Notes: generated by a model from the sequence alone, not told the origin. A stretch of 64,000 bases of DNA from Oscillospiraceae bacterium (GCA_015064485.1 SVSD01000001.1:88989-152988); one strand, 5' to 3'; positions 5,198 to 48,949 are shown, counted from the stretch's first letter. A program made the numbers and translations.

Positions 5198-6226
5198 ATG
5201 TCAGTTAAAGTTGCCATTAACGGTTTCGGCCGTATCGGTCGTCTTGCTTTCAGACAGATGTTTGGTGCTGAAGGTTACGAAGTAGTTGCTATCAACGACC
5301 TCACAAGCCCCGACATGCTCGCTCATCTTCTTAAGTACGATACAGCTCAGGGTTCTTACCTCGGCTACATCGGCGAAGGCAAGCACACTGTTGAATCCAC
5401 AGCTGATTCCATTATCGTTGACGGTAAGGAAATCAAAATCTACGCTTGCAAGGATGCTAATGACTGTCCTTGGGGCGAACTCGGTGTTGATGTTGTTCTT
5501 GAATGTACAGGCTTCTACTGCTCTAAGGAAAAGTCTATGGCTCACATCAACGCAGGCGCTAAGAAGGTTGTTATCTCTGCTCCCGCAGACAAAGAAACAA
5601 AGACAATCGTATTCAGCGTAAACGAAAACACTCTTACAGCTGATGACAAGATCATCTCCGCTGCTTCCTGCACAACAAACTGCCTCGCTCCTATGGCTAA
5701 GGCTCTTAACGATTATGCAGCTATCCAGAGCGGTATTATGACAACTGTTCACGCTTACACAGGTGACCAGATGATCCTCGACGGTCCTCACAGAAAGGGC
5801 GACCTCCGTCGTGCTCGTGCCGGCGCTCAGAACATCGTTCCTAACTCTACAGGTGCTGCTAAGGCTATCGGCCTTGTTATCCCCGAACTCAACGGCAAGC
5901 TCATCGGCTCCGCTCAGAGAGTTCCCACTTGCACAGGTTCTACAACTATCCTCGTTGCAGTTGTAAAGGGCAAGGATATCACTGTTGAAGGCATCAACGC
6001 TGCTATGAAGGCTGCTGCTTCCGATTCCTTCGGCTACAACACAGAAGCTATCGTTTCTTCCGATGTTATCGGTATGAGATACGGTTCTCTCTTCGATGCA
6101 ACTCAGACAATGGTTGCAAAGATTGATGACGACACATATCAGGTACAGGTTGTTTCTTGGTACGACAATGAAAACTCCTACACAAGCCAGATGGTTCGTA
6201 CAATCAAATACTTCGCAGAAATCTAA
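5198..6226 (+). CDS. gap: Glyceraldehyde-3-phosphate dehydrogenase
   Basis: [12 protein letters not shown]-binding N-terminus and active-site [18 protein letters not shown] upstream. Confidence 0.95.
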
Positions 6227-27122: not shown

Positions 27123-27197
27123 TTGCCTTTAGCATACGAATAACAAAAAGGAGCACCTTTCGGTACTCCTTTTTGTTATGGCGCGCTGCAAGGGACT
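27123..27197 (-). repeat. Distal copy of 75-bp direct repeat: tRNA-Arg(ACG) last 19 nt + its terminator + 18 nt
   Basis: Identical base-for-base to 27323..27397 by eye. Offset exactly 200 bp. Confidence 0.9.
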
Positions 27198-27322
27198 AGT
27201 CTTCGCCTTCGGCTCATCCTCCCTGCTTGTAAATGCTTCGCATTTCCTTCGCACCGCTCGCTACAAAACAGCCGTTTAGGCTGTTTTGCTTTACGCTCTC
27301 GCCCTCTCAGTGTTCGAGTCCC
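27198..27322 (-). repeat. 125-bp insert between the two tRNA-Arg 3'-end copies (repeat family B)
   Basis: Read in tRNA sense it starts gggactcgaacactgagagggc, which is the reverse complement of the host T arm. It contains the hairpin aaaacagcc-taaac-ggctgtttt. Homologous to 47132..47245. Confidence 0.8.
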
Positions 27323-27397
27323 TTGCCTTTAGCATACGAATAACAAAAAGGAGCACCTTTCGGTACTCCTTTTTGTTATGGCGCGCTGCAAGGGACT
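27323..27397 (-). repeat. Proximal copy of the 75-bp direct repeat (includes the functional tRNA 3' end and terminator 27341..27378)
   Basis: See 27123..27197. Minus-strand terminator ggagtacc-GAAA-ggtgctcc plus T-run. Confidence 0.9.
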
Positions 27398-27455
27398 CGA
27401 ACCCCTGACCTTTTGGTTCGTAGCCAAACACTCTATCCAGCTGAGCTAGCAGCGC
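27379..27455 (-). tRNA. tRNA-Arg (anticodon ACG), CCA encoded
   Basis: Minus-strand read gcgctgctagctcagctggatagagtgtttggctACGaaccaaaaggtcaggggttcgagtcccttgcagcgcgcca. 77 nt. Confidence 0.9.
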
Positions 27456-43661: not shown

Positions 43662-44540
43662 ATGAGAAAAGTTTCTTTTTTGATAACAAATGAATATGAC
43701 GGGATGAAGGTCGGCGATATATTAAAGCGAATGAACATTTCCTCAAGGCTTCTTCCCGAACTTAAGCGCACAGGCGGAATACTTTTAAACGGCAATATCG
43801 TAACCGTCAGAGAAAAGATAAAAGACGGCGATACCGTATCTGTCGTTCTTTATGAGGAAAGCTCCTCCGAAAATGTTATACCGACAAATATATCTCTTGA
43901 TATCATCTACGAGGATGAGGACATTCTTGCGGTCTGCAAGCCGAAGGATATGCCGGTCCATCCCAGCGCCTATAATTACGACAACACCCTCGGCAACGCC
44001 GTTATGTATTACTATCGTAATCAGAAATTCGTTTTCCGCCCGATAACCCGTCTTGACAGGGATACGACAGGTATTGTCATCATTGCAAAAAACAAGCTTT
44101 CCGCCGCCATCCTTTCGGATGAAATAAAAAACGGCGATATTAAAAAAACATATCTTGCATATCTTTCAAAAACTCCGAAAGACGATGTCGGCAAGATCGA
44201 AGCTCCGATTTTGCGAGAGACGGAAAGTGTTATAAAGCGCAAAGTGGATAAAGACGGCAAATACGCCCTTACCGAATATGAAATAATAAAAAAGCTTGAC
44301 GATGGCAGATGTATCGCAAAAGTTTCCCCCATAACAGGAAGAACCCATCAGATAAGAGTACATATGGCACATATAGGTTGTCCTCTGACATACGACTACC
44401 TTTACGGCACAGAAATCGAAGGAGAAACTTTATATTTACACTGTATGTCTTTGGAATTTACCCATCCTATAACAAGAGAAAAACTTATTTTGTCCTGCCC
44501 TCCGCCGGAAGACGGAGAGCTTTCACAAAAGCTTTCTTGA
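43662..44540 (+). CDS. RluA-family pseudouridine synthase with N-terminal S4-like domain
   Basis: Catalytic block ITRLDRDTTGIVIIAK and ..GRTHQIRVHMAHIG. Confidence 0.82.
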   Translation: MRKVSFLITNEYDGMKVGDILKRMNISSRLLPELKRTGGILLNGNIVTVREKIKDGDTVSVVLYEESSSENVIPTNISLDIIYEDEDILAVCKPKDMPVHPSAYNYDNTLGNAVMYYYRNQKFVFRPITRLDRDTTGIVIIAKNKLSAAILSDEIKNGDIKKTYLAYLSKTPKDDVGKIEAPILRETESVIKRKVDKDGKYALTEYEIIKKLDDGRCIAKVSPITGRTHQIRVHMAHIGCPLTYDYLYGTEIEGETLYLHCMSLEFTHPITREKLILSCPPPEDGELSQKLS

Positions 44541-45104
44541 ACTGAGTGTTTTTATGACAAAAAATGCGCCGACGGCTGTAAATACAGTTTCGGGAAGCAT
44601 ATATCCGCCGTTATAGAAAAGCGAATATAAATACGGGTTTGCACCGAACTGTTCAATAAAGCTTTCGGGGATCGAGTTTGCCCAGATTGTAACACCCGAA
44701 AGATAATGGCACAAAAATCTCAATGCGCAGACTCCGACCACCCCTAAAACCGAGGAAAGAGCACCTTTGTCCTTCAAAAAGCCAACAAGTCCGAGCACCG
44801 TAAATGCTAAAATGTAGTCAAGGATATAACAAACGATAAGGACAGTAGGCGTAAGTCCCCATCCGACGGCGCCCGACATAAGCGCCTGAGTTATCGAATA
44901 TACAAATGCAGCTCCAAGCCCCCACAACGGGCCGTGACGAAGAGCTGCAACGCACACGGGTAACATACTCAAAAGCGTAACAGCACCGCCAAAAGGCATC
45001 TCCCACACTTTTATAAAGCTTAATACAAATGATAATGCCACCATTATGGCACATTCCGAAAGAGCTCGCAGACGGGCTTTTTCTTTTTTTACCTGAGTTT
45101 TCAT
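44523..45104 (-). CDS. thiT: Thiamine transporter ThiT (ECF S component)
   Basis: ILDYILAFTVLG, RFLCHYLSGVTIWA and YSLFYNGGYMLP match blocks I recall from B. subtilis ThiT. ATG 45104 chosen because the longer ORF would include the riboswitch terminator. Confidence 0.8.
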   Translation of the reverse strand: MKTQVKKEKARLRALSECAIMVALSFVLSFIKVWEMPFGGAVTLLSMLPVCVAALRHGPLWGLGAAFVYSITQALMSGAVGWGLTPTVLIVCYILDYILAFTVLGLVGFLKDKGALSSVLGVVGVCALRFLCHYLSGVTIWANSIPESFIEQFGANPYLYSLFYNGGYMLPETVFTAVGAFFVIKTLSSRKLL

Positions 45105-45162
45105 TTTTATGATGATTCCTTTCGTTTTTTTGCAAACGCAACCTGCGGAAATTATTCTCCGG

Positions 45163-45326
45163 AAAAACAAAAACCGCCCCGAATATATCGGTGCGGTAAA
45201 TCAACATAAAAACTTTTATGAAATATCTTCCTACGCCGGTATTATCCGAACAGGTTAAAAGGGTTCGGGAAAATCCCATCTCAGCCGTATGCGGATATGG
45301 CCATATCCGTAAACAGCACCCCTGAT
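45163..45326 (-). promoter_or_regulatory. TPP (THI-box) riboswitch with terminator expression platform
   Basis: Minus-strand read caggggtgc..ggctgagatgggattttcccgaacccttttaacctgttcggataataccggcgtaggaa. Terminator accgcaccga-tatat-tcggggcggt plus tttttgttttt at 45163..45197. Confidence 0.85.
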
Positions 45327-45356
45327 ATATTCGATTGGTGCGAATGCATTGAAGAA

Positions 45357-46964: not shown

Positions 46965-46993
46965 TTGACAAAACATTCTTTAGGTGGTATAAT
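46965..46993 (+). promoter_or_regulatory. Promoter of tRNA-Pro
   Basis: TTGACA (46965-46970), 17-nt spacer, TATAAT (46988-46993). Confidence 0.65.
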
Positions 46994-47011: not shown

Positions 47012-47087
47012 CTGGGTGTGGCTCAGGTGGTAGAGCGCTACCTTGGGGTGGTAGAGGCCGTGGGTTCAAGTCCCGCCACTCAGACCA
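47012..47087 (+). tRNA. tRNA-Pro (anticodon GGG), CCA encoded
   Basis: ctgggtgtggctcaggtggtagagcgctaccttGGGgtggtagaggccgtgggttcaagtcccgccactcagacca. C1-G72 as in bacterial tRNA-Pro. 76 nt. Confidence 0.88.
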
Positions 47088-47127
47088 AAAAATACCGATA
47101 CCTTTTTGGTGTCGGTGTTTTTTATTT
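47088..47127 (+). terminator. tRNA-Pro terminator (first)
   Basis: 11-bp stem ataccgatacc / ggtgtcggtgt (two G-U pairs) followed by tttttt. Confidence 0.8.
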
Positions 47128-47131
47128 TGTA

Positions 47132-47245
47132 GGGACTTGAACCCTAAGAGGGCTTTTTGCGTAATGAAAACAGCCTAAATGGCTGTTTTTAGCAAAAAGG
47201 TGCGAGGCCTTTAGGCTGAGCAGTGCAGATCGCATTGCGATATGC
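47132..47245 (+). repeat. 114-bp insert between the two tRNA-Pro 3'-end copies (repeat family B)
   Basis: Starts gggacttgaaccc, the reverse complement of the host T arm gggttcaagtccc. Contains aaaacagcc-taaat-ggctgtttt. Homologous to the reverse complement of 27198..27322. Confidence 0.8.
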
Positions 47246-47269
47246 GTCCCGCCACTCAGACCAAAAAAA
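47246..47269 (+). repeat. Second copy of the tRNA-Pro 3' end (gtcccgccactcagaccaaaaaa)
   Basis: Identical 23 nt to 47070..47092. Offset 176 bp. Confidence 0.85.
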
Positions 47270-47305
47270 TCTCTGTACCGTATGGTGCGGAGATTTTTTT
47301 ATTTT
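47263..47305 (+). terminator. Second terminator after the duplicated tRNA-Pro 3' end
   Basis: 11-bp stem atctctgtacc / ggtgcggagat plus ttttttt. Same architecture as 47088..47127 but a different stem sequence. Confidence 0.75.
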
Positions 47306-47343
47306 GAAGGGACTTGAAGCCTTTCACAATTATTGAGAAAATC

Positions 47344-47377
47344 AAAAAGGAACTGTAAAATTATACAGTTCCTTTTT
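47344..47377 (-). terminator. Terminator of the pel-cotH-c-di-GMP operon; diverged GGAGCTGTA-family hairpin
   Basis: ggaactgta / tacagttcc, a compensatory G-C to A-T change relative to the other three copies. A/T runs on both sides. Confidence 0.75.
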
Positions 47378-47395
47378 ATATGCTTCGTATAATAT

Positions 47396-48949
47396 TTATG
47401 CCATCTGAGCCTTCATTTCTTTTTTATGCATATACATGGCGTGGTCTGCCTTTAAGAAAACATCAGTATATACATGGTCTATAGACGAATCGAAAAGCGC
47501 AACGCCTCTTGCTATTGATACATCAACCCTTTTATCGCCAACTTCAATGTAATCAGCAGAAAACGCTGCATCCATTTTTTCGATAAGTGTCCTGTAATTC
47601 TCAAAATCTCTTCCCTTCAAAACAACTGCAAATTCATCTCCGCCTATTCTGAAGATCGCACTTGTTTTAAATGTATCTGTGAGTATTTTTGCCGAGTGTA
47701 TAATAAGCTCATTTCCGACATCATGTCCATAGGTGTCGTTTGTTTTCTTGAGATTATTTATATCAGCCACTATTACACCAAAGGAAGGATTTCCAAGATT
47801 TATTTCCTTATTAAGCTGTTCTATTGCTTCGGTATAAGCTGTGCTGTTTTTTATACCTGTAAGAGAATCTCTGAACGCAAGGGCGTTTATATATTCAGAA
47901 TACTCGCGTATTTTTCCATATGTATCATTAAGCACACGGGAAAGAATACCTACTTCATCTTTCGAATCAATAATAAATTCTACTTCCTGTATTCCGGATG
48001 AAATATTTCCTGCCGCCTTGGTTAGTTCCTTTAGAGGCTTAACAATTCTGCTCGTCACCCAAAATGTATAAATAATCGAAAGAACAAGTACTACTAAAAA
48101 CGCGATTACTATATGGGTAAGCATCGGGCGTATACCGCTTTGGATATCTTTATATCCCGCGCGAAGTTCAAGGTTCATTCCGTTTACAAGAGCCTGTGTT
48201 GCCTTTGTATACTCGCCGTAAATCTCGGTTTTTTTGGATGTATTATAACAGGTTTCCATATCCTCTCCGATAAGAAGGGCACAGCCGTTTTCATAAACGG
48301 AAATGCTGTTTACCCGGTCAAGCAGATAATCAAAGTCCATATTAAATCCCAAAATACCGACAAAATCATCTTTGCTGTATACCGGAAGAACATACGATAC
48401 AACCATTTCCTTTGTAAAACGGCTGGGATGAGGTTCTACCCACGAACCGCCTATCGGACTTTTAGCGTTACTGTACTCTACGAGCTCCTCGTCGGTTATA
48501 AGAGAAAGTTTTGAAAAATCATCTTTGGAAAGTTCATATACGCTGCCGTCTTCCATATATTGACAGTAAAAACCTGATGTTATCCCTGTAAGTTCAGGTG
48601 AAAAGCAAAGATAATAAGAACTTGCTCCGGAAGTGTTATATGCCACTTCATCAAACAGATGACGAATTTTTTCCGTATATTCTGCAAGGTATTCTTGGTC
48701 GGAAAGCGACCCGGAGCTTATAAGCTCATGTGATACGTAATGTTCCATTATAGCTACAGATTTAACAAAATCATTAAGCATATCATCAATTTGTGCCACT
48801 TCTTTTTGTGCCACATTATTTAAAATTCTGTCAGCATCTTTATGCATTATTTCATGTGTTATTGTAACTGAGATTGATGTCACTATCAAAGTGATGACAA
48901 CAAGTGCTGAAATTACAACAAAAAGTATTTTGCCTTGTATGGTTTTCAA
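47396..48949 (-). CDS. Membrane-bound diguanylate cyclase: Cache-like sensor, HAMP, GGDEF
   Basis: N-terminal TM, periplasmic-type sensor, second TM + HAMP (IVKPLKELTKAAGNISSG), intact active site RIGGDEFAV. TTG start overlaps the upstream stop (TTGA). Confidence 0.85.
   Translation of the reverse strand: MKTIQGKILFVVISALVVITLIVTSISVTITHEIMHKDADRILNNVAQKEVAQIDDMLNDFVKSVAIMEHYVSHELISSGSLSDQEYLAEYTEKIRHLFDEVAYNTSGASSYYLCFSPELTGITSGFYCQYMEDGSVYELSKDDFSKLSLITDEELVEYSNAKSPIGGSWVEPHPSRFTKEMVVSYVLPVYSKDDFVGILGFNMDFDYLLDRVNSISVYENGCALLIGEDMETCYNTSKKTEIYGEYTKATQALVNGMNLELRAGYKDIQSGIRPMLTHIVIAFLVVLVLSIIYTFWVTSRIVKPLKELTKAAGNISSGIQEVEFIIDSKDEVGILSRVLNDTYGKIREYSEYINALAFRDSLTGIKNSTAYTEAIEQLNKEINLGNPSFGVIVADINNLKKTNDTYGHDVGNELIIHSAKILTDTFKTSAIFRIGGDEFAVVLKGRDFENYRTLIEKMDAAFSADYIEVGDKRVDVSIARGVALFDSSIDHVYTDVFLKADHAMYMHKKEMKAQMA

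Follow-up and report, generated by a model that had tools for sequence, protein, structure and literature searches.

A candidate family of structured-RNA cassettes in the 3' flanks of tRNA genes of gut Clostridia

The attC site of integrons is a single imperfect hairpin with an inverse core (RYYYAAC) and a core (GTTRRRY); to our knowledge, Firmicutes lack integrons. Group I introns possess a conserved catalytic core (P3-P9) with a G-binding site and measure at least about 200 nt, and their guide contacts are P1 plus P10. IS110 bridge RNAs and IS200/605 omega RNAs are encoded at the transposon end, next to a recombinase or TnpB/IscB gene. Integration at tRNA genes leaves a regenerated gene end and a displaced fragment, as described in PMC4383910.

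The locus described here lies behind a tRNA-Pro(GGG) gene of an Oscillospiraceae bacterium, in a window of 64,000 nucleotides (GCA_015064485.1 SVSD01000001.1:88989-152988), by which we mean the whole stretch of DNA that was analysed. Like tRNA-gene islands and CIMEs, it has a direct repeat that starts in the T loop, a gene regenerated from within the unit, a displaced fragment downstream and tandem stacking. Unlike them, the unit measures 176-200 bp, carries no integrase or cargo, and combines a five-helix interior with a junction-spanning inverse copy of the T arm; the searches turned up no parent island. Integron cassettes likewise form arrays of short units, with a single-strand-folded site that is conserved in structure and has complementary ends, and can carry minimal cargo. 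The present element, however, is multi-branched and lacks RYYYAAC/GTTRRRY boxes and IntI, its arms (GGGAY.../RUCCC...) are derived from tRNA, and its host site is the T loop. As in tRF-3 fragments, retroviral primer-binding-site complements and tRNA-like ends, the copy comprises exactly 18 nt, beginning at position 59 and ending with CCA; unlike in those systems, there is no reverse transcriptase in the vicinity, it is the folding strand that bears the sense copy, and the minihelix is not conserved. The 3'ETS sRNAs (e.g., 3'ETS-leuZ) are non-coding RNAs from a tRNA trailer with no promoter of their own, as is predicted here, but they are short sponges that lack structure, contain the tRNA end in neither direct nor inverse copy and do not behave as cassettes. 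The features of the tRNA-Pro locus are as follows.

46965..46993, + strand: promoter of tRNA-Pro, sigma-70-type (TTGACA, 17 nt, TATAAT, extended TG), 12/12 hexamer matches
47012..47087, + strand: tRNA-Pro(GGG), intact, CCA encoded, identified by ARAGORN and Rfam
47070..47092, + strand: direct repeat copy 1, the working tRNA end (nt 59-76 plus A-run)
47087..47123, + strand: terminator 1, stem ATACCGATACC/GGTGTCGGTGT lengthened by A/T runs, -21.8 kcal/mol
47132..47144, + strand: 5' arm, exact reverse complement of tRNA nt 51-63, straddling 58|59
47142..47152, + strand: P2, CCCU-AAG-AGGG, in the most conserved block UYGAACCCURAGAGGGC (96% invariant columns)
47153..47199, + strand: P3 (CUUUUUGC/GCAAAAAG) enclosing P4, with compensatory changes at 4/5 P3 pairs and 7/10 P4 pairs
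47201..47222, + strand: P5, UGC-GA(A)-stem-loop-GA-GCA, with a conserved GA-rich internal loop and an inner stem that covaries between species
47225..47245, + strand: P6 hairpin, GCAGAUCGC-AUU-GCGAUAUGC, species-variable in sequence, with pairing kept, including G.U on the tRNA strand
47246..47268, + strand: direct repeat copy 2, the 3' arm (tRNA nt 59-76 plus A-run)
47264..47300, + strand: terminator 2, stem ATCTCTGTACC/GGTGCGGAGAT lengthened by A/T runs, -22.1 kcal/mol
47308..47322, + strand: stump of a further unit, AGGGACTTGAAGCCT, which is the 5' arm with one change and ends here after 15 nt

As a preliminary description of this DNA had claimed, the end of tRNA-Pro is present twice: the 23-nt repeat GTCCCGCCACTCAGACCAAAAAA occurs in two exact copies 176 bp apart, and its 18-mer core has exactly two matches in the window versus none expected from 100 shuffles. 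The A-run of copy 2 is one base longer, which explains the end coordinate 47269 given in that description. The repeat starts inside the T loop, between tRNA nt 58 and 59 (58|59). Both tRNA-Pro (76/76 bases) and copy 2 (18/18 bases) are identical across four species. The claim that an 11-bp-stem terminator follows each copy was also borne out, with stable folds (z-scores of -7.5 and -9.0 for hairpins 1 and 2) and, on the transcribed strand, the G+C-containing stem and subsequent T-run of an intrinsic terminator. The two stems had been called unrelated, and their sequences do differ, but 7/11 and 6/11 positions are common to both; they appear isostructural because both have been maintained as working terminators during sequence turnover. 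Past the T-runs, the similarity reported to resume was confirmed over 28 nt (47118-47145 versus 47295-47322), with 26/28 bases identical. The tRNA-Pro promoter is conserved in orthologous loci, and ahead of the unit as a whole there is no other good promoter; a promoter was sought between terminator 1 and the element, and none was found.

On the tRNA strand, the stretch between the copies (47131-47263) comprises a five-helix element. Its start, AGGGACTTGAACCCT (47131-47145), holds the reverse complement of the T arm GGGTTCAAGTCCC (47062-47074), matching at 13/13 positions, which the preliminary description had overlooked. The closing helix P1 pairs GGGAC (47132-47136) with GUCCC (47246-47250), and GCCACUCAGACCA within the 3' arm is an unpaired tail with CCA at its end. 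P4 is a terminator-like hairpin, AAAACAGCC-UAAAU-GGCUGUUUU. No ORF fits the insert between the two copies.

Several other readings of the insert were tried and rejected. A small ORF in P4, ATGAAAACAGCCTAA, is not kept at the tRNA-Arg locus described below. The hammerhead-like sequence CUGAGAG...GAA is short of one core nucleotide and gave no model match. The GAA/GA loop of P5 has Watson-Crick flanking pairs, which makes it a GA-rich 3x2 internal loop rather than a canonical kink-turn. ARAGORN and Rfam yielded no tRNA-like gene on the opposite strand, which folds worse in 9/9 members. As a separate observation, the Y of UYGAA covaries with the R of CCCURAG (47137-47148 and homologous positions), being U..A in the Pro and tRNA-Met (L030) lineages and C..G in all others; this reflects either an alternative helix of 3 bp that closes the GAACCCU loop or linkage via tRNA position 57.

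The window contains a second host gene with a paralogous element.

27379..27455, - strand: tRNA-Arg(ACG), second host in the window
27179..27330, - strand: paralogous element behind tRNA-Arg, 109 bits

Here the 5' arm is an exact complement of tRNA nt 53-67 (15/15) and the 3' arm corresponds to nt 58-76, and the tRNA end recurs together with its terminator at a period of 200 bp, with 75 nt identical. The Pro and Arg inserts are homologous, having in common GGGACTYGAACnCTRAGAGGGC, the hairpin AAAACAGCCTAAAYGGCTGTTTT and GGTGCGA. The remaining three tRNA genes of the window have no comparable insert, and a model derived from the alignment (R1) matches only the Pro and Arg sites in the window.

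Strict patterns from the shared core were used to search one genome per species and metagenome contigs for further members of the family. About ten members were available in all, four of which are orthologous Pro loci; those outside the window are the following.

L012, L025, L026: host Pro(GGG), orthologous to the window locus
L009, L032: host Arg(ACG), L009 truncated
L019: host Thr(CGT), followed by a degenerate second unit
L031, L033: host Lys(CTT)
L030: host Met(CAT), copy internally deleted

These complete or partial copies share a common plan and come from gut Clostridia, recurring in seven tRNA contexts and at five tRNA identities (Pro, Arg, Thr, Lys, Met). Read along the tRNA strand, each shows the same succession of tRNA, terminator 1, tRNA-complementary 5' arm, UYGAACCCURAGAGGGC, P3/P4, P5, P6 and a copy of nt 59-76, and the element is always oriented on the tRNA's own strand. 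A second terminator usually closes the layout, following the 3' arm in 7/9 members, although the terminator sequences are unrelated. The exact complement in the 5' arm is 13-16 nt long and spans 58|59 in 8 loci. The 3' arm corresponds to nt 59-76 in 5/7 members that have one, the others being the window Arg locus (58-76) and L031 (59-74). When arms were compared with their own tRNA at the variable positions 57, 59, 64 and 65, 22/28 matched (p = 4e-9). In L031 and L032 the closing helix reaches over the acceptor strand, resembling an acceptor/T minihelix, and CCA is absent in L031. Mimicry of this minihelix was rejected as a general rule, as it is true of L031 and L032 only and P1 of the Pro lineage is 5 bp.

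Two loci show further arrangements. In L030 (2756-2940), tRNA-Met is followed by a mini-element in which the 5' arm and AGAGGGCGTCGAACGTG are fused directly to the copy of nt 59-76. A full second element with an identical 33-nt start and another arm lies 2.6 kb downstream (5574-5677), and between the two are a PemK/MazF toxin gene and an HSDR_N-domain gene; this arrangement may represent a unit carrying cargo. In L012 (1560-1803, - strand), a 5'-truncated relic of the element lies directly behind an AraC-type gene and is followed by ATCCCACCCCCCGCAACCA, which resembles nt 59-76 of tRNA-Met, and then by a terminator; no tRNA-Met is present within the 8-kb locus.

A related intergenic repeat was observed in Bacteroidales/Rikenellaceae MAGs (L011, L013, L014, L016, L017, L018, L020, L022, L023, L027, L028, L029), three of which carry it at two separate sites. 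The core of the repeat reads AGAGGGCCGAGCGT, with the hairpin AAACAGCCC..GGGCTGTTT and then TAGCGAAGGAGCC. A P3 of the form CCGAGCG/GCGAAGG is common to this repeat and to the Firmicutes member L033. Model R1 gave full-length but weaker matches to L017 and L014 (30 and 24 bits). L017 (819-1116) has a mirror-image layout upstream of tRNA-Leu(TAA): the far arm copies tRNA nt 1-11, the near arm contains nt 5-18 in reverse complement, and the two arms pair together (GGAUGGU/ACCAUCC).

The structure of the Clostridia element was assessed by setting a consensus structure on a plain MAFFT alignment, made from sequence alone, of 9 complete members. In this alignment 97.5% of cells are paired versus 46-55% in slid controls, 14/27 pairs have changed on both sides, and 0/500 shuffles attained the observed values. 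Independent MFE folds recovered P1 (5' arm/3' arm), P2, P3/P4, P5 and P6 as a five-way junction in 9/9 members. The tRNA strand is the more stable in 9/9 members, with totals of -533.9 versus -473.6 kcal/mol. Compensatory changes that keep the helices and a strand preference, as expected of a structured RNA, are thus both present; a folded single-stranded DNA site would yield covariation too. Mean pairwise identities across the four orthologous Pro loci were as follows, by segment.

tRNA: 100%
5' arm with P2: 98%
P3/P4: 95%
P5: 79%
P6: 75%
3' arm: 100%
Promoter region: 73%
Terminator 1 with spacer: 57%
Terminator 2 with flank: 44%

Over these loci, conservation of the element ranges from 75 to 100%, the changes in P5 and P6 being mostly compensatory, and both terminators are unalignable. 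Despite the replaced sequences, both terminators remain good in the Pro orthologues, and their types change places: the GATACC type is first in the window and L012 and second in L026, and the GACGTCC type occupies the first position in L026 and both positions in L025. As judged from these alignments, the interior of the element is under purifying selection with compensatory changes.

The similarity downstream of terminator 2, left unexplained by the simple att model of the preliminary description, now proves to be the 5' arm of a further unit that is truncated here and complete in relatives. The tandem units are deduced from unitigs assembled from mixed communities. In three independent gut metagenomes (runs X2, X3 and X7), contigs join 47319 to 47143, so that the stump runs on into a full element in relatives. 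Contigs of the same runs also join 47265 to 47090, such that the 3' arm is followed by terminator 1 and another element. Both joints together indicate that close relatives carry two or three tandem units of 176-177 bp. At the Arg locus and in L026, too, a comparable stump lies behind the second copy. Strain comparison, which the preliminary description had proposed as a check, revealed copy number that varies between related strains, but neither a clean empty site nor an excision joint was seen. In the synteny search for an empty site, relatives whose neighbouring FAD protein is 81-88% identical have no tRNA at that place, the exact FAD protein has no database record, and RecR contigs end before the locus.

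Contigs in X2 and X3 also have a scaffold at least 93% identical from 47147 on and a different 5' arm, ...CAGAGCGGGAATCGAACCCG, which is complementary to the T arm GGGTTCGATTCCCGC of another tRNA in the same communities. A near-identical scaffold with a differing 5' arm, ...GCGGGAATCGAACCCG, in the metagenome contigs points to a further tRNA host.

Partners and known relatives of the element were sought in several ways. At gathering score, Rfam matched only tRNA and TPP in the window and 19 loci, and permissive searches, with E up to 10 for the window and up to 1 for L032 and L033, returned nothing relevant in the element. The group I intron model (Intron_gpI) gave no match, and the ~100-nt scaffold follows another helix plan. 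No integrase, transposase or reverse transcriptase adjoins any copy among the immediate neighbours at the window loci and 9 others, and no TnpB/IscB or IS110-type recombinase gene lies beside any copy. Neighbours in the window include an FAD oxidoreductase, GGDEF/EAL proteins, MltG, a U32 peptidase and ABC transporters. As to a partner protein, the neighbours of the window loci and the immediate neighbours of 9 further loci have nothing in common, being unrelated genes of housekeeping or sensor type. BLAST of the core against plasmid and phage records gave no match, two pattern scans of viral contigs gave a single chance match in a coding region, and no kb-scale element sharing the att-flanking sequence was found in genome or metagenome matches. 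RNA runs were found in which the organism is rare, and their metatranscriptome contigs cover the tRNA part only. Full-text keyword searches of the literature returned no account of such an element, and a catalogue paper that was checked does not mention it; an earlier description is still possible.

A tiny unit with no protein genes and a selected, folded interior is a poor fit to a decayed integration junction, and the locus is therefore read as a structured-RNA cassette. We are about half persuaded that it represents a new family of transcribed structured-RNA cassettes that reside in tRNA 3' flanks and are tied to T loops, with one complete unit and a stump at the Pro locus. Each unit of 176-200 bp contains tRNA nt 59-76, then an intrinsic terminator with a short spacer, a 5' arm that complements the T arm over nt ~51-63 or further, and a ~100-nt scaffold of four hairpins; the folded element comprises ~120 bases. 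The next copy of nt 59-76 pairs with the 5' arm to close the five-way junction (P1), with the acceptor 3' strand and CCA as a tail and a terminator after it. The element would be transcribed from the tRNA promoter via read-through of terminator 1, with terminator 2 ending the transcript, and would act as an RNA that its arms presumably tie to one tRNA. Recombination between repeats may lead to gain and loss of units. New tRNA hosts would be reached through an event in the T loop, at 58|59, that supplies a replacement tRNA end, so that the host gene stays intact. In favour of the cassette are its structure and strand preference, selection on the interior, kept terminators, tRNA-specific arms, co-orientation with the tRNA, tandem units, and the lack of an own promoter or an Rfam match. 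Against it, P1 of the Pro lineage is just 5 bp, the conserved 13-nt tail is unpaired, and terminator 1 is apparently strong, so that read-through may be low. Also counting against it are metatranscriptome contigs that cover the tRNA alone, covariation that a folded DNA site would equally yield, the failure to see a clean empty site or an excision joint, and a membership of about ten with four orthologues among them.

If the family is real, it would be a structured RNA or mini-cassette that is widespread in gut Clostridia, and probably in Bacteroidales, and absent from the catalogues searched, and it would connect three fields, namely integration at tRNA genes, structured non-coding RNAs and the choice of targets by guides. 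Arms matched to the host tRNA on both sides of 58|59 provide a testable handle on how a site is chosen in the absence of a linked integrase. Displaced tRNA fragments are used in annotation to delimit genomic islands, and units of 176-200 bp would be miscalled or missed. Even the modest reading, in which sRNAs arise from tRNA trailers, would itself be a new class.

A bolder reading, which we consider rather unlikely, takes the unit as a mobile cassette of ~180 nt that encodes no protein and whose own RNA or folded strand picks the target, the 5' arm acting by analogy as a guide that spans the insertion point in the T loop and an unlinked enzyme performing the insertion. The cassette would supply a spare tRNA end and terminator, by which the host gene would survive, and a changed arm might direct it to another tRNA or, as in the mirrored Bacteroidales form, to a tRNA 5' end. 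This reading is kept because of the regularity with which arm and junction coincide, including the mirror image in L017. Like the internal guide of group I introns and the loops of IS110 bridge RNAs, the element has a short stretch that complements the target across the junction (nt 51-58 on one side, 59-63 or further on the other). Unlike them, it has no catalytic core, is about half the minimal size, and has neither an Rfam match nor an adjacent recombinase, and its candidate guide would lie ~60 nt from the junction that it spans. By this analogy, the likeness to guide RNAs is one of logic only and not of membership. Were it true, it would constitute a new RNA-guided or self-templated insertion system.

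It is also conceivable, if unlikely, that the element is a folded single-stranded DNA recombination site comparable to attC, at which a recombinase encoded elsewhere inserts a tRNA end, a terminator, occasional cargo and the element into the T loop. The conservation of P5 and P6 in structure above sequence and the preference for one strand are consistent with such a site, as are the arrays of units, the terminators shuffled among positions in orthologous loci, and the inverse and direct arms that flank the structure much as inverse core and core flank attC. The toxin and HSDR_N-domain genes between the two elements of L030 would fit as cargo, but this is the single possible case. The fold is a five-way junction with conserved loops rather than a single imperfect hairpin, and a recombinase is absent near all copies. 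Also against a DNA site, the terminators kept after the element and the strict co-orientation with the tRNA point to transcription.

In a further alternative, likewise doubtful, the element is a cis-acting trailer of the tRNA transcript: the 5' arm would pair with the T arm and the distal acceptor copy with the tRNA 5' strand, thereby sensing or controlling tRNA maturation, stability or quality control. The perfect complementarity of 13-15 bp between 5' arm and T arm, the specificity of arms for the adjoining tRNA and the lack of a separate promoter would suit a trailer, and the MFE folds of 47012-47145 and 47012-47303 use exactly these alternative pairings. This support is thermodynamic prediction only, however, and tRNAs fold co-transcriptionally. 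A trailer also leaves unexplained the tandem arrays, the relics lacking a tRNA (L012) and the multi-copy Bacteroidales relatives, and most tRNA genes of the window have no such element.

The att-type junction favoured in the preliminary description is only partly upheld. As a classical integrase junction, the locus would be a decayed or non-autonomous island remnant (CIME-like), mobilised, if at all, by the integrase of a related island, and we regard this as very unlikely. The layout of a regenerated tRNA end with a displaced fragment is the island signature, as outlined in PMC4383910. The start within the T loop, the recurrence at different tRNA genes (hosts include tRNA-Lys(CTT), Arg and Thr genes), the observed tandem accretion and the differences in copy number agree with it. 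Standing against it, ~10 loci have no integrase, cargo or island genes, the searches of viral contigs, plasmids and phages gave the one chance coding-region match only, and copy 2 offers no symmetric core site because the sequence to its left is unlike a T arm. The interior is a conserved structured module, and its constant size and strong conservation with compensatory changes would be unexpected for a remnant. A plain local tandem duplication of the tRNA 3' end and terminator, followed by drift, is extremely improbable. In its favour, the Arg locus and L025 have repeat copies whose identity extends through the terminator; against it, the 100-nt core is not of local origin, is under selection, and is homologous across unrelated tRNA loci and across orders.

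Other features were observed near the Pro locus. A TPP riboswitch (45211-45333, - strand, 77 bits) lies ahead of a thiamine-transporter-like ORF (44523-45170, - strand), the homologue of which in related contigs matches Pfam ECF_trnsprt and Thia_YuaJ, and the arrangement from riboswitch to tRNA-Pro recurs in L025. Between the stump and a convergent GGDEF gene (47396-48949, - strand) is a near-perfect 17-bp palindrome flanked by A/T runs (47343-47378), which is likely the terminator of the GGDEF gene. The depth of metagenome contigs at this palindrome is above that of its surroundings.
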